From contig NZ_DATLJA010000011.1 of assembly GCF_035539115.1 (NCBI RefSeq), positions 20,564 to 44,563 of the forward strand: a DNA stretch of 24,000 nucleotides, given 5' to 3'. Below the pieces are notes generated by a model. The model did no database searches. It had not been told where the DNA came from and saw only the letters and a list, made by a program, of their open reading frames with translations. Source of the stretch: Desulfitobacterium sp. GTDB taxonomy: Bacteria; Bacillota; Desulfitobacteriia; Desulfitobacteriales; Desulfitobacteriaceae. The stretch's first letter is position 1; each line of letters starts with the position of its first letter. Shown piece by piece: positions 9,183 to 23,788 of this stretch. Both the position numbers and the translations under genes were made by a program.

Positions 9183-10368
9183 GACGGCCTTTGATTGGCA
9201 CGATGGGAATGGTTTATTTTTATACGGTTGAAGCGTTGAATGCAGACCTGTATTCACTCAAAATCGCTCGTTGGCAATTTTGGATTGTTTCGTTGTCGAC
9301 TGCCGGATTATTAGGGACACTGTTCTTGCGCATCGGCAATGGCCGGGAGTTTCTTGATGGTCTGCCGATGTTCTATGCTGGAATCTCGCTGGCCATTCTG
9401 CTAGGTGCCTATAACCTCATCCAAACCCTAAGAAAATATATGCAGCGCATAACCCCCGCATCTGCGATTATGACAGGCGGAATGATTTTTCTCTGCCTTT
9501 TATTAATTCCGAATGTGCTCAACTATACTAACCCCATAGCCGATGAAGCGGTGAAGTATTGGGTCGTCCATCTCTGGGAGGAAATGGCCTTCGAATTGAC
9601 CTCAAGTGGCTTTATTGCCTCATTTTTTATCGCAGCAGGTTTAGCTGAAAAAAAGGATATGGAGAAATGGCTCTATCTCGAAGCCGGTTTGGCGGTTTCG
9701 GGGGGATGTTTGGTACTGGTCATCATTATTACTGGATCGGTTTTCCGGCGATTTGGTTGATTATTGGCGTTGTCTTTAGCGTAATCCAAATGATTCCGGT
9801 GGGCTTGCTTGCCCATTTAACCTATAAAGGATTAAAAAAACATCGACCACTGGATCGACGGGAGAAATTAACGCTTTGGATGATTTTAAGTAGTTTATTT
9901 TATCATTTAACGGGTGCTTCGATGCTCGGAATGATGATGACGATACCCTGGATTAATCTTTATTCGCATGGCACCTATATTACGTCCGGACATGCCCATT
10001 TGGCGTTATTTGGCGTGATGGGTTTTCTCGTTTTGGCTGGATCACACGCTATTTTAAGCAATGGCTATGAATTATCACGTAAGAGTTACTTTTGGGGAGT
10101 TATTGGGGTTGTCTTGCTTAACGCAGGAGTTATCACGATGAGCTCATTTCTTCTTGTGGCAGGTTTGTTGCAAACTTATTTATGGCGATATTTAGGGATG
10201 AATTTTACGCAGGTTCAAGAATTAATTCAACCGTACTTGCTGGCACGGGTGGCAGGGGGGTCACTTTATACTGTCGGAAGTGTTATCCTTGGCTGGAGGA
10301 TGATTAAAGCTTGGTGGCTAACAAGAGAGGATGGAAAAATAGGTGCAGAAGTTTCAAAAAGAATTTGA
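9170..10368 (+). pseudogene. NorB-like heme-copper oxidase subunit I (nitric-oxide reductase / cbb3-type), 5'-truncated and frameshifted
   Basis: ORFs 9191-9760 and 9667-10368 are two frames of one gene. The ligand motifs VVHLWEE (helix VI), GTGHHYYW (helix VII) and SGHAHLALFG (helix X) appear in order, but the frame changes at a G6 run (9700-9705). The frame opens only at 9170, inside the end of the glycerate kinase gene, with no RBS. About 80 N-terminal residues, including the helix II His, are missing. Confidence 0.7.
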
Positions 10369-14216: not shown

Positions 14217-14331
14217 TCAATCTTCTCTCCTTTTGTAGTATAGAAAAATTATATCCTATACCTGCCCGATTCACAATGGTGAGTGAGTCAATGTCATTTG
14301 AAGTGGGAAGTTACAGGAAAAAGATTCCCAC

Positions 14332-14369
14332 ACTACGCTTAATATTTGTGATAAAATATTAAGCGTAGT
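14332..14369. promoter_or_regulatory. Perfect 16-bp inverted repeat (ACTACGCTTAATATTT-N6-AAATATTAAGCGTAGT) just upstream of the GGDEF gene
   Basis: Read directly from the sequence. It lies 17 nt before GTG 14386, inside the divergent TVP38/GGDEF control region. Its function (operator or 5'-UTR hairpin) is not established. Confidence 0.5.
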
Positions 14370-14385
14370 ATGGAAATTTAAGGGT

Positions 14386-16412: not shown

Positions 16413-17225
16413 TTAGTTTATAAAGAAGGGAACGACGCCGATTAAAAAGAGTAATTCTGAAAGCTCAATGCTGGCACCGTATAGATCCCCGGTTAATCCG
16501 CCCAAGAGGTGCGAGACTTTCTGTGTAAAATAAAAAAGAAAGAGAAAAGCAAGAAGAAGGCCAACCAAGCCGGCCCACCCCAGAAGATAGACAGCAAGAG
16601 CCAAGCAGATCAACCCTTCAATAATAAAAAAACAGGGTCGATTAAGCGAACTTTCGTGGAAACCTTGCCCCAGTCCTGTTTTGCGCGCATACGGATAAAA
16701 AAGTATGCCGAACAAAAATAACCAGCGTGAAAGCGTCGGCATGATTAAAACAGCAAAGAAAGGTCCAAAAGTGCTTAAGGATTGGTAGTTAAGAGAAGAA
16801 AAGTTAGAAGAGAAAGACAGTAAAGAACCGCTTCCTTGTAGAAGCCCTGCTAAGAGAGAGAACTTGAGGAGGAGTATGGCACTTGCGCTTAACGCGCCAA
16901 ACGATCCGACTCGGCTATCTTTCATGATCTCGAGCATTCTTTCTGGAGTTCGGGCGGACCAGAGGGCGTCCATGCTATCCATGAAGCCATCCATATGGAT
17001 ACCGCCTGTCAATAGTAATTCTTCAATCAGCAAGAAAGCGGCAACGACAAGGGGAGGATAAAAACTTCGCAAAAGGAGGGCACTTAAGCTCATAATAATT
17101 CCAAGCAAAAGACCGATGAGCGGATAATAACGCTGGCTGGCTGTAAACTCTTCTTGAGTGACATCCGCGGGCGCAGGAAAAGGCAGTCGCGTCAGAAAGG
17201 TTACGGCAATTAAAAATCCACGCAT
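16413..17225 (-). CDS. cobS: Adenosylcobinamide-GDP ribazoletransferase (cobalamin synthase)
   Basis: 270-aa polytopic protein with the CobS N-terminus FLIAVTFLTRLPFP and the HMDGFMDSMDAL motif. It starts 2 nt after the cobU stop. Confidence 0.9.
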   Translation of the reverse strand: MRGFLIAVTFLTRLPFPAPADVTQEEFTASQRYYPLIGLLLGIIMSLSALLLRSFYPPLVVAAFLLIEELLLTGGIHMDGFMDSMDALWSARTPERMLEIMKDSRVGSFGALSASAILLLKFSLLAGLLQGSGSLLSFSSNFSSLNYQSLSTFGPFFAVLIMPTLSRWLFLFGILFYPYARKTGLGQGFHESSLNRPCFFIIEGLICLALAVYLLGWAGLVGLLLAFLFLFYFTQKVSHLLGGLTGDLYGASIELSELLFLIGVVPFFIN

Positions 17226-17227
17226 AA

Positions 17228-17842
17228 TTACGGACGCTCCTGTTGAGGGTTCAAGGAGTTTAAGAGTTCCTGCCCAGACTGTTTGACTTCGATGGGATAA
17301 CCCGCGACGACATAAAATACTTTATCTGCTTGACGAGCAAGGAGCTGATTGGCACGTCCTGCTAAATCACGGTATGAGCGAGCCATAGGATTATCCGGGA
17401 CGATGCCCTGGCCGACCTCATTCGTCACCATAATGATTTGGGGAGTTATTTCCTGGGCAAGGGTTGCGACTTTCTGGACTTGCTCCAGGATTTTTTCCTC
17501 GGCTTCGGGAGTCAGGGTATCAGGGAAAAGTGATTCTGAGGTAGAACCCAAAGATTTGAGTAAGAGATTGGAAAGCCAGATCGTTACACAATCCAGAAGT
17601 ACGACTGCATTTTTATAGCGAATTTCTTCCAAGACAACCGGAATAGCGAAGGGTTCCTCAATGAGTTGCCAGTTGTCTGGTCGCTGGTGTTGGTGCTTTT
17701 TCACTCGCCAGGTCATTTCCTCATCGAGAACCTGGGCTGTAGCGATATAGATAACGGGTCGACCGGAGTGAGCTGCGAGACGTTCCGCAAAGGTACTTTT
17801 GCCGCTGCGGGCTCCACCGGTGATGAGTGTGAAGTTAGACAT
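17228..17842 (-). CDS. cobU: Adenosylcobinamide kinase / adenosylcobinamide-phosphate guanylyltransferase
   Basis: The true start is taken at Met42 of the listed ORF (MSNFTLITGGARSGKSTFAE), because CobU P-loops sit at the extreme N-terminus. A GGAGG lies upstream. The 41-codon extension to 17965 has no family counterpart. Confidence 0.88.
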   Translation of the reverse strand: MSNFTLITGGARSGKSTFAERLAAHSGRPVIYIATAQVLDEEMTWRVKKHQHQRPDNWQLIEEPFAIPVVLEEIRYKNAVVLLDCVTIWLSNLLLKSLGSTSESLFPDTLTPEAEEKILEQVQKVATLAQEITPQIIMVTNEVGQGIVPDNPMARSYRDLAGRANQLLARQADKVFYVVAGYPIEVKQSGQELLNSLNPQQERP

Positions 17843-18151
17843 TGGGATTATCGGCCTCCATTCCGCTTCCGAGGGCACCCTCGCGTATAGGCCGGGGCGC
17901 TTGTAGACCAAACCTAAGGTCCTGACTCTGATTTGAGGTGGACCGATAACACTTAGACGTGTCATCGCCCGCCAAAATCGTCTCCTGACTCTGTTGGCGG
18001 TTGCGCACGTCGTGTGCGCAACCCTTCTTTCTGGGGTATCGCCAGGGCCTAAGTTTGGTGGCTACTCGCTTTAAGGCCTAAGGGAGGGTTGCCCTCGGAA
18101 GCTGGGCTGTTTCTTAAGGGTAATTTAGGGACTTTGGGGTTAGTTTTTAAG

Positions 18152-18367
18152 TATTCCTTTTAGCCTTTACCTACGGCAAAGCTTGGAAGAGCTGTTTTTG
18201 TATTCCTCTTTGCCTTTACCTACGGCAAAGCTTGGGAGAGCTGCTTTTTGTATTTCTCTTTGCTTTTGCCTTTGGCAAAGCTGAGGGATGATGGGGAGAT
18301 GGAGCGTTAATTAGGGAGCTTCTTTAGTATACCTTTTTATCTTGGCCTTTGGCAAAGCTTTCGAAGA
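18152..18367. repeat. Decaying tandem array of a ~50-bp unit (2 near-identical and 2 degenerate copies), each with a CTTTGCC-N-GGCAAAG hairpin
   Basis: R1 is 18152-18200 and R2 is 18201-18250: tattcct(c/t)tt(t/a)gcctttacctacggcaaagcttgg(a/g)agagctg(c)tttttg. R3 starts at 18251 and R4 spans 18328-18367; both are degenerate (...gcctttggcaaagct...). The array is contiguous with no spacers and abuts the cobT stop codon. Confidence 0.75.
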
Positions 18368-19495
18368 TCAGAACTCTCCTGTGGTCACGCCGGCTGATTC
18401 GAAGGTGGCCATTTCGTCGGCGATTTTGAGGGCGGCTTCGATTATTGGAAACATGAGGACTGCGCCTGTGCCTTCCCCAAGTCTCATGTGAAAATCAAGT
18501 CTGGGTGTGAGTCCGAGTTGTTTTAGGGCTAAGCGGTGACCTTGTTCTTCTGAGTTATGGGAAGAGATCATATAGGGGGCGGAGAGGGGGGCAAGTTTTG
18601 CTGCGGTGAGGGCTGCTGCTGATGAGATAATACCGTCGAGAATGATGGGTACGTGTTGGTAAGCGGCCTCGAGGATTGCTCCAGTTAGTGCAGCAATTTC
18701 GAGTCCCCCAATTTTGGCGAGGGTATCGAGGGGGGCAGCGGGATCAGGCCGATTGACTTCAATTGCGCGTTTAATGACGTCTTGTTTATGTTTCAGGGCA
18801 TCGTCCTTAACTCCTGTACCTCGTCCTGTGACTTCTTCGACCGAGTGTCCTGTAAAGACTGAAACAAGGGCAGCACTTGGAGTTGTATTGCCAATTCCAA
18901 CTTCACCTGTTGCCAAAAGGTTAATTCCTAAGTTGATCGCTTTGGCGGCAACATGGGCACCGGTAAGAAGTGCGAGTAAGGCCTCTTGTCGGGTCATTGC
19001 TGGGCCTTGAGTCATATTATTGGTGCCATTTTTGACGCGGTTGGCCATTAGTTCAGGAGGGTCTAAGGGAGAAGCAATCCCTATGTCTGTGCAGATGAGT
19101 TCAGCTCCGCCATGCTCGGCGAGGACATTAATGCCTGCCCCTCCTTTAAGGTAGCTATAGAACATTTCAACAGTAATTTCCTGGGGAGCTGCACTGACTC
19201 CTTCAGCCACGACACCATGGTCTCCGGCCATAAGAAGGACAGCTTTTCCTTTGATTTTTGGTTGTGAGGTGCGATAGATTCCAGCGAGTTGTTGGGCAAT
19301 ATCCTCTAAGACGCCCAAACTTCTGAGAGGTTTAATTTTCGCATTCAAACGTTCTTGCATGCCAGAGATGGATTCTTGGTCGAGCTTTTCAATTCTGCTC
19401 GTAAGCTCTTTTAAGGCAGCTTCGAGGTCTTGTCCTTCTGCTTCCTTAAGATTATTTAGACCATGGAATTTTTCCCCGTTGTTTAGTGTCGACAT
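18368..19495 (-). CDS. cobT: Nicotinate-nucleotide--dimethylbenzimidazole phosphoribosyltransferase
   Basis: 375-aa protein with CobT motifs (MAGDHGV, GGAGINVLA, GEVGIGNTTPSAAL, LGEGTGA). RBS is GGAGGAG. Confidence 0.9.
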   Translation of the reverse strand: MSTLNNGEKFHGLNNLKEAEGQDLEAALKELTSRIEKLDQESISGMQERLNAKIKPLRSLGVLEDIAQQLAGIYRTSQPKIKGKAVLLMAGDHGVVAEGVSAAPQEITVEMFYSYLKGGAGINVLAEHGGAELICTDIGIASPLDPPELMANRVKNGTNNMTQGPAMTRQEALLALLTGAHVAAKAINLGINLLATGEVGIGNTTPSAALVSVFTGHSVEEVTGRGTGVKDDALKHKQDVIKRAIEVNRPDPAAPLDTLAKIGGLEIAALTGAILEAAYQHVPIILDGIISSAAALTAAKLAPLSAPYMISSHNSEEQGHRLALKQLGLTPRLDFHMRLGEGTGAVLMFPIIEAALKIADEMATFESAGVTTGEF

Positions 19496-19523
19496 TTAAT
19501 CTCCTCCATTTTGTTTATTTATA

Positions 19524-19765
19524 AAAAAATAAAGTCCCGCCACAATTTTTGTTGTGGTCGGGACTTTGCCGTCATCTCCGCCGCTTTCCAATACCCCGGA
19601 AAGACTTTTTCTTCTTAGGCAGGTCTCCTGGCTCAGACTCAAGCGCCCTATCGCTCCTTCCCAGCAAATGCCAGTGGATTAGCGGGGGCTTGTCTTTACA
19701 GTGGTGGGTCCGCACCGGATTAAACACCGGTTTCCCTATTCTCCCCCAAAGGGGCACCTAAAAAA
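19524..19765 (-). promoter_or_regulatory. Cobalamin (AdoCbl) riboswitch with intrinsic terminator, leader of cobTUS
   Basis: The minus strand reads uAGGUGCCCC...AGGGAAaccGGUGuuuAAUCCggugCGGaCCCACCACUGUAA...GAGCCAGGAGACCUGCC, which includes the B12 box. It is followed by aaagucccgaccacaac-aaaaa-uuguggcgggacuuuAUUUUUUU, then the RBS and cobT. Confidence 0.92.
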
Positions 19766-19974
19766 TAACTTTAATTTGAATTTATCTTAAGATTAACAAA
19801 GATTCGGAAAAAGTCAAGAACTAAATATAGGGTGAGGTAACTCATCCTTTTGTTATGGGAATATAAGGTGTCAAATATAGAATGAATTTCAAATCTATGA
19901 TATAATACATCTCGAATAGAGGAAGATAATATGATATTGTACTATAACACTAAAATTGAAGGAGCATAAGAAAG

Positions 19975-21393
19975 ATGAAACGGGGAGAATTGAGGCAATC
20001 GGAAACATTAAAATATCAGGAGTTAGAGGGTAAGCGCTCGCATGGGATAGTGGAAAACCTGAAATATTCTTTTATCTTAGAAGGTTTAGTCATTTACAGA
20101 GTGCTTCGTGAAGATACGGTCGTGGAAAGTTTACAGAACCTATTTACTTCTTTAGCAGAGGAAGAGCTTGATCTTATAAAAGTTCATCAAAACTATTATA
20201 CGTTTTGCGCTCTGGCAACTGAAAAGAATTGGCCTAAGTATTTATGGGATCTTGTCTTAGAGTCGGACAATGTTTTTTCCCGGCAAGCCAGTTTTAAAGC
20301 GTGGGAAAACTTAGATACAGGACTTAAAAATCTCGTGATTCGTGACCTAAAGGCAGTTCGGAGGATTGCCGGTCTTCAACCAGAAGATTTACAACGGATG
20401 GTTTGTGAAAGAATGGAGAAGCAAACTGAACTGCCAGGGGAAGAGTGGCTCGAAAGGCTAGAACAGTGGCCGTTATGGGCTCCCCAAGCAGGCGAAGTCC
20501 AACATGATTCAAGTCGCGCGGGTCAATTTTTAGAAACGACACGGAATGAAGTGAAGAAGGTTTTGCTTGCTGACGATGAGGAAAAAGCTGGACGAGAATT
20601 GGCCACTTTTTACCGAAAAATTGGCGTAGGACTGATGGCCGCCGGATTAGCCTTCAAATGGGATGGGAAAGCTAAGGTCCTTGTTAGTGTTACCCCTGAT
20701 CCGATCCGGAAGGAGCAGTTAATTGGGCAAGAGCGTGAACAAGGCATCCTTTTTGAAAACACGAATTTCTTCCTGGCAGGCTATCCTGCAAATAATGTAA
20801 TTCTTTATGGAAACCGGGGAACGGGCAAATCTTCTTTGGTTAAGGCCCTTCTTCAGGAGTATTGTGATCAGGGACTAAGATTAGTGGAACTTTCCAAACA
20901 AGATTTAACGGATTTTCCGTTGATTATTCGTTATCTCGCGCCTCAACCTCAAAAGTTTATTCTTTTTATTGATGATCTTTCGTTTGAGGAGACGGAGTTG
21001 GCCTATAAAGCGTTGAAGACTGTGTTGGAGGGAGGCTTGGAAAAGCGTCCTGACAATGTGCTTATTTATGCGACTTCGAATCGCCGGCATCTTATTCGCG
21101 AGAACTTCTCCGAACGTCAAGGCGACGAGGTTAATGTCCGGGATACCTTAGATGAAAAGCTTTCCCTAGCGGATCGTTTTGGGATCACAATTACTTTCCC
21201 CTCACCAGACCAGGAGGAATACTTGAGGATTGTGGAAGAATTGGCTGCTCAGGAGGGGTTAACGCTTGAAAAAGCACAGCTTCGTCAGCAGGCGTTGAGG
21301 TGGGTTATGATGCATAATGCGCGTTCAGGTCGTACCGCTCGACAATTCATTGATTATTTGGCGGCTCAACAAAAAGTTAATGAGCAAATCTAG
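19975..21393 (+). CDS. DUF815-family AAA-type ATPase with a long N-terminal extension
   Basis: It has Walker A (LYGNRGTGKSSLVKAL), Walker B (FILFIDDLSFEE) and sensor (IYATSNRRHL) motifs arranged as in PF05673 proteins. RBS is GAAGGAG. Confidence 0.8.
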   Translation: MKRGELRQSETLKYQELEGKRSHGIVENLKYSFILEGLVIYRVLREDTVVESLQNLFTSLAEEELDLIKVHQNYYTFCALATEKNWPKYLWDLVLESDNVFSRQASFKAWENLDTGLKNLVIRDLKAVRRIAGLQPEDLQRMVCERMEKQTELPGEEWLERLEQWPLWAPQAGEVQHDSSRAGQFLETTRNEVKKVLLADDEEKAGRELATFYRKIGVGLMAAGLAFKWDGKAKVLVSVTPDPIRKEQLIGQEREQGILFENTNFFLAGYPANNVILYGNRGTGKSSLVKALLQEYCDQGLRLVELSKQDLTDFPLIIRYLAPQPQKFILFIDDLSFEETELAYKALKTVLEGGLEKRPDNVLIYATSNRRHLIRENFSERQGDEVNVRDTLDEKLSLADRFGITITFPSPDQEEYLRIVEELAAQEGLTLEKAQLRQQALRWVMMHNARSGRTARQFIDYLAAQQKVNEQI

Positions 21394-21396
21394 GTG

Positions 21397-21444
21397 GAAT
21401 CGTAATCTTTAACTAAGAAAAGTGTGGAGAACTCCACACTTTTC
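21397..21444. terminator. 23-bp-arm perfect palindrome acting as a bidirectional terminator
   Basis: The sequence is ctttaactaagaaaagtgtggag-aa-ctccacacttttcttagttaaag. The core stem agtgtggag/ctccacact is flanked by A- and T-runs. It starts 4 nt after the DUF815 stop and ends at the Nramp-remnant stop. Confidence 0.6.
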
Positions 21445-21717
21445 TTAGTTAAAGAGCGTTAAATAGATCAGAACGGCATTAAGCGAGATAATAAGCGTGA
21501 CGATGATAACCCCCACGATATTGGTCAGCTTTTTATTCACTATTTCTCGCATAACAGATTTGCGGCTCGTGATCAAAAGAAGAGGGATAACCGCAGCAGG
21601 AAGAGCAAAACTAAGCGTGACCTGGCTGAGAATCAGGATTTTCATCGGATTGATACCAATCCAGAGGAGAATCATCGCCGGGATCATGGTGATAATTCGG
21701 CGAATATTACACGGCAA
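21445..21717 (-). pseudogene. C-terminal remnant (about the last 87 aa) of a second Nramp/MntH paralog
   Basis: NIRRIITMIPAMILLWIGINPMKILILSQVTLSFALPAAVIPLLLITSRKSVMREIVNKKLTNIVG... aligns by eye, at roughly half identity, to the C-terminus of the intact MntH in this window (INLRRLITMTPALIIIALGVNPMSALVISQVVLSFALPFAIVPMLWITSRKDLMGSLVNQPLTKVAG...). The preceding roughly 340 aa are absent. Confidence 0.75.
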
Positions 21718-22400: not shown

Positions 22401-23684
22401 TTATACGTTACCGGTGAAAGTCAGGTAAAGCAGAACCGTATTTAAACCGACAATGACACTCGTAATTACCCAACCGGCGACCTTGGTTAGAGGTTGATTG
22501 ACTAAGCTACCCATTAAGTCTTTACGACTGGTGATCCATAACATTGGCACAATGGCGAACGGAAGGGCGAAGCTTAATACAACTTGGCTTATTACTAAGG
22601 CACTCATAGGGTTGACACCTAATGCAATGATAATCAAAGCCGGGGTCATTGTAATTAATCTTCGAAGATTAATGGGGATAGTCAATCCAACGAAGCCTTT
22701 CATAATGGTTTGCCCAGCCATGGTACCCACTGCTGAGGACGACAAACCCGATGCCAACAAAGCAATCCCAAAAACTCCACTCGATAGTGGCCCGAGAAGA
22801 GGTTCTAATGATTTGTGTGCTTGTTCAATCGTATCCACAACCATACCATTTCTGAAAAATACTGCAGCAGATACGATGACCATTGCGGCATTAACGATAA
22901 ACGCAATATTCATAGCGATGGCAATGTCGATTCGCTCCATACGTAAATGATTGCGTTTTTGTTCATCAGTATAATCCTTTTTATTTCTGGTCTGAACCAA
23001 CTGCGAGTGAAGATATATTACGTGAGGCATTACCGTTGCCCCGAGCATTCCAACCGCTAATAATACGGCTTCGCCATTAGGAAGTGACGGAATTAGGGTG
23101 TGCATGCCCGCCTGTGTCCAATCTGGCTTAGCCAAAAACAGTTCAATAGTATACCCAATAGTTATAACCGCCACCAAAGCACCAATAATCCACTCGACGA
23201 CCCTTTGACCATATTTCTCCATGTATACGATTAAGAAAGTAAGAACACCAGTAAGTAGACCAGCATAAATCATGGGGATATGGAATAGCAAATACAAGCC
23301 TAATGTTCCGCCAAGAAACTCAGCCAAATCAGTAGCCATAGCTGCAAATTCAGCCTCAAGCCAGAAAAACCAATTGGTCTTTTTCGAGAAAACCTTTGAG
23401 CACATCTCCGGCAGGTTATGCCCTGTAGCTATCCCAAGCTTGGCTGACATACTCTGGAGAAAGATAGCCATCAGGTTACTCCAGAGAATCACCCATACCA
23501 AGTTGTAGTTGAATTGAGAACCGCCACTGATGTTAGTCGCAAAATTACCGGGGTCAATGTAAGCAACACTAACTATAAACGCCGGACCTATATACTTGAG
23601 TCGACCTTTAACCTTTACCAGCCAAGTATCTTTTGGCAATGGCAGTGTAAGCGATGTTTTGGATAAATTAATACCTTCGCTCAT
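22401..23684 (-). CDS. mntH: Nramp-family divalent metal (Mn2+/Fe2+):H+ symporter MntH
   Basis: It carries the Nramp signature (AYIDPGNFATNISGGSQFNY, GATVMPHVIYLHS) and 11-12 TM segments. The start is taken at ATG 23684 (MSEGINL...), 6 nt after TGGGGGT. The listed ATG 23723 lacks an RBS. Confidence 0.9.
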   Translation of the reverse strand: MSEGINLSKTSLTLPLPKDTWLVKVKGRLKYIGPAFIVSVAYIDPGNFATNISGGSQFNYNLVWVILWSNLMAIFLQSMSAKLGIATGHNLPEMCSKVFSKKTNWFFWLEAEFAAMATDLAEFLGGTLGLYLLFHIPMIYAGLLTGVLTFLIVYMEKYGQRVVEWIIGALVAVITIGYTIELFLAKPDWTQAGMHTLIPSLPNGEAVLLAVGMLGATVMPHVIYLHSQLVQTRNKKDYTDEQKRNHLRMERIDIAIAMNIAFIVNAAMVIVSAAVFFRNGMVVDTIEQAHKSLEPLLGPLSSGVFGIALLASGLSSSAVGTMAGQTIMKGFVGLTIPINLRRLITMTPALIIIALGVNPMSALVISQVVLSFALPFAIVPMLWITSRKDLMGSLVNQPLTKVAGWVITSVIVGLNTVLLYLTFTGNV

Positions 23685-23788
23685 TTTGATACCCCCAGTT
23701 TTTCTACTAGAGTCATAAAGCATGTTGAAAGAATATACTGATATAACTAACCAGTATACTTATAAGGTGAGAAAGATTTTCACCTCAA

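Follow-up and report, generated by a model that had tools for sequence, protein, structure and literature searches.

A lineage-restricted structured RNA element directly upstream of cobU in Desulfitobacterium-related bacteria

The DNA analysed here, a stretch of 24,000 nucleotides (nt) of contig NZ_DATLJA010000011.1 (the window; ENA assembly ERZ27250357), belongs to an uncultured bacterium of the Desulfitobacterium group, and its CobU shares 82% identity with the CobU of Desulfitobacterium metallireducens DSM 15288. Its minus strand carries a cob operon in the order Cobalamin riboswitch, cobT, a 525-nt gap, cobU and cobS, and our subject is a structured RNA element that lies in this gap, next to cobU. 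The locus comprises the following features.

19601–19776, minus strand: Cobalamin riboswitch (RF00174, 109.7 bits), with a terminator hairpin and U-tract after it
18368–19495, minus strand: cobT, dimethylbenzimidazole (DMB) phosphoribosyltransferase family (PF02277, 1.6e-129)
17862–18102, minus strand: whole structured RNA element (fold z = −7.2, homologous copies, consensus structure)
17855–17859, minus strand: cobU Shine-Dalgarno sequence GGAGG, 6 nt after the outer helix (P1) of the element in the window and 35–60 nt after it in relatives
17228–17842, minus strand: cobU, adenosylcobinamide kinase/guanylyltransferase (PF02283, 1.2e-60)
16413–17225, minus strand: cobS

The 525 nt between the cobT stop codon (18368) and the cobU ATG (17842) form an unusually long spacer in an operon with an upstream Cobalamin riboswitch (RF00174), as had been pointed out in an initial reading of the window made before any search (the sequence-only reading). 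That reading also called the spacer free of open reading frames (ORFs), which is literally incorrect: a 57-amino-acid (aa) ORF starting with GTG spans 17835–18008, and mechanical calling extends the cobU ORF 41 codons upstream, to an ATG at 17965 within the RNA element. Neither frame, however, is open in homologues, and the ribosome-binding site together with alignment to all relatives places the true cobU start at the ATG at 17842. An over-extended cobU call is possible in automatic annotation of the window at 17843–17965, and the 210–216 aa annotated for CobU homologues in relatives (P0010, P0011) may share the same cause.

The minimum free energy (MFE) fold of 17843–18151 reaches −131 kcal/mol, compared with −89.6 ± 5.8 for shuffled sequences (z = −7.18; 0/100 shuffles as good), and fold z-scores of the element copies were −7.2 (window), −8.7 and −6.8. 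The element has a G+C content of 58%, against 44% for the whole window. All helix and motif coordinates and sequences proposed in the sequence-only reading proved exact on the minus strand, and its four helices, among them the local hairpins at 18001–18021 and 17969–18000, are all present in the MFE fold. The core of the outer helix is formed by CUUCCGAGGGCA (18101–18090) pairing with UGCCCUCGGAAG (17877–17866), and a second helix by CACCAAACUUAGG (18060–18048) with ACCUUAGGUUUGGUC (17920–17906); the position of the latter stands, but its conserved register holds one G·U pair rather than the two that had been counted. A consensus structure calculated with RNAalifold on four full copies contains 66 pairs in six computed helices, the long third of which we divided into P3 and P4 to give the numbering P1–P7. 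In this consensus, an interrupted P1–P4 rod of ~45 bp is capped by a junction carrying P5, P6 and P7, with P5 enclosing the hairpins P6 and P7. The parts lie as follows in the window.

18084–18102, minus strand: P1 5' arm, outer helix, including CUUCCGAGGGCA (17 pairs, 95.5% of cells paired)
18075–18079, minus strand: P2 5' strand, AGGCC (consensus structure)
18041–18069, minus strand: P3–P4 5' strand, including the second helix (23 pairs, 98.9% of cells paired, 2 compensatory)
18021–18027, minus strand: P5 5' strand, GAAGGGU, which in relatives pairs with ACCCUUC to close the P6/P7 junction; partner lost in the window
18002–18020, minus strand: P6 hairpin, 7–8 bp, G+C-rich (3/7 pairs compensatory, 100% of cells paired)
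17969–18000, minus strand: P7 hairpin, with an apical mini-hairpin carrying an AGGA loop (lower stem with 1 compensatory position and 3 pair types)
17945–17966, minus strand: insertion found only in the window, a predicted hairpin GAUGACAC-GUCUAA-GUGUUAUC in place of the P5 3' strand
17899–17926, minus strand: P3–P4 3' strand, containing the second copy of CAGAGUCAGGA (consensus structure)
17889–17893, minus strand: P2 3' strand, GGCCU (consensus structure)
17865–17882, minus strand: P1 3' arm, outer helix, the only part surviving in D. metallireducens

P1 and P2 together hold 22 pairs in 24 columns, with two single-column bulges and a 4-nt internal loop. A 24-nt block, ACCAAACUUAGGCCCUGGCGAUAC, is invariant in 4/4 full copies; it starts in the P3–P4 5' strand and extends ~5 nt beyond the 3' end of that strand into the junction. 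Conserved loop or single-stranded sequences are GAUAC, AUCAG and the AGGA loop of P7, the loops of both P6 and P7 being conserved, while most junction strands are variable; these strands, where one would look for a binding pocket, are the least conserved parts of the element.

The window copy is itself a derived variant. An insertion, 19 columns of the alignment that are filled in the window row only, breaks P5, and most of the spacer between P1 and the ribosome-binding site, 35–60 nt long and 37–70% identical among relatives, has been deleted, leaving 6 nt. The closeness of P1 to the ribosome-binding site is thus specific to the window, and the ~15 nt given for this distance in the sequence-only reading is in fact 6 nt to the GGAGG. 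Unpaired P5 cells fall mostly in the window row, with one further pair broken in L030 (80/170, AA). Despite the broken P5, the window and L019 copies are nearly identical in their 5' halves.

Taking the nearest relatives by CobU, we collected their cobU loci and sorted the cobT–cobU spacers into states. The homologue search proposed in the sequence-only reading succeeds: immediately 5' of cobU, three other metagenomic lineages have the same element of ~225 nt and a fourth has its 3' half on a truncated contig, all of them related to D. metallireducens. The states are listed with the identity of each CobU to that of the window.

L019/L020, CobU 86%: full element, same place
L023–L025, CobU 82%: full element, same place
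L030, CobU 76%: full element, same place
L036, CobU 73%: 3' half of the element only, contig cut
L031, CobU 86%: outer stem only, with P1/P2 meeting at a GGCCU repeat and ~170 nt of interior deleted
D. metallireducens (L021/L022), CobU 82%: P1 3' arm only
L026 (82%), L032 (78%), L034 (75%), L027 (76%), L037 (71%), Desulfitobacterium sp. Sab5 (L003, 71%) and a Peptococcaceae metagenome-assembled genome (L004, 65%): no element, spacers of 75–260 nt

The place of the element relative to cobU is invariant in every carrier. The sequences of L019, L023 and L030 stem from runs SRR23193557, SRR23961900 and SRR9313735, respectively. Two lineages hold deletion remnants only, and seven relatives lack the element. 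The remnants in L031 and D. metallireducens prove that deletions have occurred, and the GGCCU repeat found at both P2 strands borders the internal deletion of L031. In a CobU tree, carriers and non-carriers are interleaved and L030 falls near the base of the clade, with weak bootstrap support. The simplest history suggested by these sequences is one gain followed by several losses. The element is dispensable, having been deleted wholly or partly several times.

The perfect palindrome of P6 reads GGUUGCGCAC-ACGAC-GUGCGCAACC, and two independent Logan contigs, L002 and L036, have their first base only a few positions from its 3' side; L031, also a Logan contig, begins instead at the P1 5' arm. 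We considered the breaks in L002 and L036 as a possible sign of multiple copies and rejected this, since they fall directly after the palindrome and are probably de Bruijn assembly breaks.

Between lineages, the element is 77–88% identical, compared with 47–64% for cobU third codon positions and ~57%, with many gaps, for the flanking spacer. Its divergence ranks as that of cobU across the same genome pairs. Conservation above neutral sites, together with this tracking of the host gene, indicates purifying selection and vertical descent as opposed to recent transfer. Covariation of the proposed helices, which the sequence-only reading had suggested checking, is found among the relatives. In the consensus, 96% of cells are paired and 7/66 pairs are changed on both sides, a count reached by 0/500 shuffles, while sliding the partners by 1–3 columns gave 0–1. 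In P1, one pair is compensatory (U-A to G-U) and two changes on a single side give G·U, and the apical stem of P7 reads GUC/GAC in some copies and GGCA/UGCC in others. The claim of a structured RNA on the transcribed strand is thereby borne out by fold stability (z = −7.2), compensatory changes and substitutions that yield G·U only.

These substitutions also bear on the strand. The consensus pairs contain 7 G·U cells and 0 A·C cells (one-sided binomial ~0.008), and L031 adds one more G·U in P1. Because transitions should yield G·U and A·C equally, the excess favours the cob mRNA strand. Free energy was set aside for this purpose as uninformative, and the choice of strand rests on the substitution pattern.

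No reading frame is conserved, all six being interrupted or shifted in at least one homologue. One short antisense frame stays open, with non-conservative changes that are explained by helix covariation. A protein query that chained every open translated piece of the element, in all six frames, into one chimera, and was aimed at mis-called ORFs on other contigs, gave no match at E ≤ 1. A coding gene, a leader peptide and an antisense micro-ORF were each rejected, as no frame is conserved across homologues. The element is a lineage-restricted, vertically inherited structured RNA of ~225–245 nt, part of the cob mRNA and directly 5' of cobU; it is non-coding, belongs to the sense strand and is under purifying selection where it is kept.

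The place in the cob operon could be incidental, or the operon could serve as a host transcript, and the element could be a stand-alone or processed small RNA that acts in trans from either strand. Its compact, very stable, rod-like fold with conserved loops would suit such a role, the sense strand folds no better than the antisense strand, and the P6 hairpin on the plus strand is followed by a partly T-rich tail that a terminator scan flagged. This antisense T-tail, however, is weak and not conserved, reading CCUUUGCUGUG in L030. There is no promoter-like site directly flanking the element and no sense-strand terminator after it, the substitutions favour the sense strand (7 G·U against 0 A·C), and the fixed position relative to cobU in every carrier is hard to square with an incidental location. 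We consider a trans-acting small RNA very unlikely.

The patchy distribution, with its stem-only (L031) and 3'-arm-only (D. metallireducens) derivatives, raises another explanation, namely that foreign DNA or a non-autonomous mobile element, akin to a miniature inverted-repeat transposable element (MITE), BOX or Correia repeat, inserted into the spacer of an ancestor and is decaying without host function. The P1 arms resemble ~19-nt terminal inverted repeats, the G+C content (58% against 44% for the window) is compatible with an outside origin, a tandem-repeat array adjoins the element as in modular BOX elements, and similar short sequences (GCGAAUACUAG / CGAAUCCUAG) flank it in L019 and L023. 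However, directly abutting the P1 arms, which are imperfect inverted repeats of ~19 nt, we found no direct repeat that would represent a clear target-site duplication, only loosely similar motifs 15–45 nt away.

A mobile element would also be expected at more than one place. Pneumococcal BOX, the Correia elements of Neisseria, ERIC and REP are modular intergenic repeats that are multi-copy and dispersed. The element shares with them inverted-repeat arms forming a long hairpin, adjoining tandem sub-repeats and presence or absence that varies between close relatives; it differs in being found at one locus only and in having compensatory, RNA-strand-specific substitutions. Searches with blastn and an nhmmer profile recovered only the cobU-linked copies, whether in the 24 kb of the window, in ~28 kb of the source contig (window plus L001) or in 217 kb of related loci. 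Both outer arms used as one pattern gave 0 matches in GTDB representative genomes, the invariant 23-mer gave 0 matches in JGI metagenomes and IMG/VR, a degenerate 3'-arm pattern had no match in IMG/VR, and blastn against phage and plasmid collections had none either. A single JGI metagenome match to the degenerate 3'-arm pattern (L035) was discarded as chance, lying inside a high-G+C coding region. These searches covered the named collections and partial carrier loci, with no complete carrier genome among them. With the element at a single locus in all that was scanned with these patterns, its divergence tracking the host gene at a conservation far above neutral sites, and compensatory and G·U-only substitutions that indicate selection on the RNA fold, decay of a functionless insertion appears improbable to us.

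The sequence-only reading had offered a divergent or degenerate corrinoid sensor among its explanations, on the strength of duplicated strings resembling the B12 box. The element does share features with the Cobalamin riboswitch: the two have their operon and strand in common, the element is likewise a structured RNA 5' of a cob gene, and its GAGUCAGGAGAC (12 nt) resembles the B12 box GAGCCAGGAGAC of the operon riboswitch. Yet the scan that had been proposed with the Rfam Cobalamin and AdoCbl-variant models came back empty. Window positions 17700–18500, searched on both strands with all of Rfam including these two models (RF00174 and RF01689, clan CL00101), gave no match at E ≤ 10, and the homologous copies in L020, L025 and L030 gave no Cobalamin-clan or other Rfam match at E ≤ 5; the permissive scans of the window gap and the three homologous loci returned noise only, for example microRNA and small nucleolar RNA models. 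At the gathering threshold, Rfam 15 finds only the upstream Cobalamin riboswitch in the window, and the same Cobalamin models score 109–111 bits on the real riboswitches of these operons. The statement that the element fits no canonical class thus holds, there being no Rfam match, as does the observation that the GGGAA and GGUG-N-AAUCC hairpin (P3) core of such riboswitches is absent from the element; that core is present in the riboswitch at 19601–19776.

The B12-box-like string is simply the top of hairpin P7. It reads GUC-AGGA-GAC in the window and L023, GGCA-AGGA-UGCC in L019 and L030, and GGCA-GGGA-UGCC in L036; set against the B12-box consensus AGYCMGGAGACC, the copies read GAGUCAGGAGAC (window, L023), GAGGCAAGGAUGCC (L019, L030) and GAGGCAGGGAUGCC (L036). 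Since the stem covaries among copies, the P7 apex keeps its structure and not its sequence. The motif CAGAGUCAGGA does occur twice, at exactly 17993–17983 and 17930–17920 as described, but its second copy, in the P4 3' strand, reads CAGGGCCAGGA, CAGAGCCAGGA or CAGAGCCAGUG in relatives, and the duplication is an accident of the window sequence. The sole similarity between the element and the operon riboswitch is 12 nt long, with a score of 19 against 16.7 ± 2.3 for shuffles (maximum 28); origin by duplication of the operon riboswitch was rejected, this similarity lying within the shuffle range. With no Rfam match, non-significant similarity to the riboswitch, a covarying hairpin stem and an unkept duplicate, the corrinoid-sensing reading fails. 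The element does not belong to the cobalamin riboswitch clan, showing none of three defining features tested; it differs from the riboswitch in lacking a covariance-model match, the core motifs, and a terminator or sequestering platform. A B12-box-like string beside cob genes is here a coincidence, which only the comparison of homologous copies could reveal.

The main rival to the explanation that we favour is a sensor of another kind. The P4/P5/P6/P7 junction could bind a metabolite of nucleotide-loop assembly or a regulatory protein, making the element an orphan riboswitch or protein-binding leader; candidate ligands would be cobinamide, a lower-ligand base, alpha-ribazole or a cobamide, and the effect would fall on cobU–cobS translation or on Rho-dependent read-through. 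In support of this, the mRNA strand carries the element immediately 5' of cobU, its G+C content is high for so A+T-rich a spacer, several covarying helices meet at a junction, and GAUAC, AUCAG, the P7 AGGA loop and the invariant 24-nt block are strongly conserved; by inspection, C-rich, G-poor stretches flank the element that could load Rho. What it lacks is an expression platform, there being no terminator and, in relatives, a ribosome-binding site 35–60 nt away across an unconserved spacer. Moreover, a P1-type switch would need closing helices far shorter and less stable than these, most junction strands vary, the window copy has no P5 at the core of the junction while the rest is still conserved, no known aptamer class matches, a cobalamin riboswitch already serves the operon, and close relatives have lost the element repeatedly. 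On balance we regard a ligand- or protein-binding leader as doubtful. Its boldest form is a considerably longer shot: the element would be a new aptamer class, or the site of a dedicated regulator, acting as a second, independent sensor that tunes cobU–cobS separately from cobT. The rod would then be a scaffold and the modelled binding site the P4/P5/P6/P7 junction with GAUAC, AUCAG and the AGGA loop, with cobinamide, a lower-ligand base or alpha-ribazole as ligands that the upstream cobalamin riboswitch cannot report.

The interpretation given in the sequence-only reading is thus partly supported, and of its options a novel cis-regulatory RNA and a processing or stability element both remain compatible with the evidence. 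We favour the latter, and put the probability that the element is a post-transcriptional processing and stability module, as opposed to a ligand sensor, at roughly 40%. The stable rod would act as an exonuclease barrier, as a target for a double-strand nuclease, or as both, so that the cobT and cobU–cobS portions of the transcript would have separate fates. Alternatively, the element might protect the 5' end of a cobU–cobS transcript that starts at a putative internal promoter just after cobT. By either route, the cobT : cobU–cobS ratio would not depend on the upstream cobalamin riboswitch. Opening by a ligand is unlikely, because P1 and P2, with 22 pairs, are too stable. The absence of a terminator, the unconserved link to the ribosome-binding site and the variable junction strands all argue for a static structure and against a switch, as do the tolerance of P5 loss in the window and the survival of the element as a stem only in L031.

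Comparable arrangements are known. Within the cggR–gapA operon the mRNA is cut by RNase Y and a 5' stem-loop protects the gapA mRNA; RNase III stems occur in polycistronic mRNAs, and REP hairpins in malE–malF. Like such structures of Firmicutes and enterobacteria, the element is a stable structure between cistrons, has no terminator and would permit differing expression of upstream and downstream genes. Its predicted P1 (17 pairs) and P2 (5), both conserved and backed by covariation, form a near-continuous duplex of about two helical turns, a feature of RNase III-type stems, and are about the same size as RNase III substrates. It differs in being much larger, with seven helices and two junctions, and in having a sequence more conserved than a simple barrier hairpin would require.

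Several points weigh against a processing and stability module. The mechanism is modelled entirely on anatomy. The invariant 24-nt block and the conserved P6 and P7 loops exceed what a plain stabiliser needs, which suggests a specific partner, be it a protein, an RNA or a ligand. Repeated loss shows that the role of the element is non-essential. The candidate internal promoter is a consensus match only. The covariation statistics draw on only four full, fairly close sequences and have little power, and free energy gives the sense strand no advantage, its complement folding equally well or better. Two further candidates for an interaction were rejected: pairing of CCCUCC, in the 5' arm, with the Shine-Dalgarno sequence, which the L023 variant CCCACC breaks and which would span ~270 nt, and a CsrA-type reading of the AGGA loop, for which there is one site only and no support.

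Two other groups of RNAs invite comparison. EAR, the epsC RNA of Bacillus, is an intra-operon structured RNA that promotes processive antitermination and is present in Rfam. The element is similarly conserved, structured, placed between genes inside an operon, cis-acting and narrowly distributed; unlike EAR, it has no Rfam match, and no downstream terminators are evident that would need overriding. Orphan G+C-rich intergenic structured RNAs of low-G+C Firmicutes include raiA, OLE and candidates from screens by G+C content and intergenic-region length. As in these, the element is long, G+C-rich, highly structured and covarying in an A+T-rich genome, but it has no Rfam 15 match and a far narrower distribution, a handful of lineages in a genus-level clade. 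A full-text literature search found no description of such an element. It is thus an uncatalogued RNA family of a known general kind.

If functional, the element would bring an RNA family not yet catalogued into the control of cobamide nucleotide-loop assembly and add a second RNA layer to an operon that already holds a cobalamin riboswitch, placing the cobT : cobU–cobS ratio under its own control in some Desulfitobacterium-related anaerobes. The natural variants (stem-only, 3'-arm-only, broken-P5 and full deletions) form a ready series for testing function. Its reach is limited to a very narrow clade, the sole cultured relative holds only a remnant, and the mechanism is inferred.

The remainder of the cobT–cobU spacer carries two features of its own.

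18146–18370, minus strand: tandem array of four copies of a 49-nt repeat (100, 90, 67 and 61% identity), separate from the element
18326–18355, minus strand: promoter-like site TTGCCA-18-TATACT (10/12), just after cobT, a consensus match only

The array occupies the upper 225 nt of the gap and went unmentioned in the sequence-only reading. Each 49-nt unit consists of a GCUUUGCC-N3/4-GGCAAAG(G) hairpin and an A-rich AGGAAUAC tail, and the last copy shares bases with the cobT stop codon. In relatives there are 1–3 degenerate units of this type, with or without the structured element and in varying copy number. The array may have arisen by repeated duplication of a promoter-like motif of the spacer. 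TTGCCA-18-TATACT may be an internal promoter for cobU–cobS; promoter-like sites numbered 2, against 2.7 expected. A motif GCAGGTAAAA-N11/12-(T)AGGCGAATACTAGAAC is conserved in the cobT–cobU spacers of almost all relatives, again with or without the element (L023 3520–3560, L019 ~205–245, and in L021, L026, L027, L032, L034 and L037; the window equivalent is at ~18326–18355). We take this motif to resemble the Bacillus sigma-H promoter consensus (RnAGGwWW ... RnnGAAT), and if it is sigma-H-like it would suggest a separate, possibly stationary-phase, cobU–cobS promoter.

In relatives, a hairpin with a 12–14 bp stem (GAGCUGACCUCGG...CCAGGUCAGCUC) and no U-tract stands just after cobT (L023 ~3430–3475, L019 ~85–135, L021 ~3760–3805, L026 ~2787–2830). 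Its stem covaries, reading GUUGACCUUGG/CUGAGGUCAAC in L019; the window lacks this hairpin and has the tandem repeats in its place. A scan for terminator-like sites in 17000–20000 returned none on the minus strand, its matches inside the element being on the plus strand only.

Elsewhere in the window, a short ORF matching Nramp (PF01566) at 21445–21717 (minus strand) lies ~700 nt downstream of a full-length Nramp gene (22401–23723); with an 80-aa product in the contig gene calls, it is probably a gene fragment or pseudogene remnant. Two overlapping plus-strand ORFs (9191–9760 and 9667–10368), each with a COX1 (PF00115) match in the contig gene calls, look like a split or frameshifted heme-copper-oxidase-like gene. 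A 24-bp perfect inverted repeat with a 2-nt gap sits at 21406–21455, directly after a DUF815 AAA-ATPase gene (19975–21393), and another 24-bp inverted repeat (92%) is found at 14324–14377, upstream of a GGDEF gene; both may be bidirectional terminators or protein-binding palindromes.

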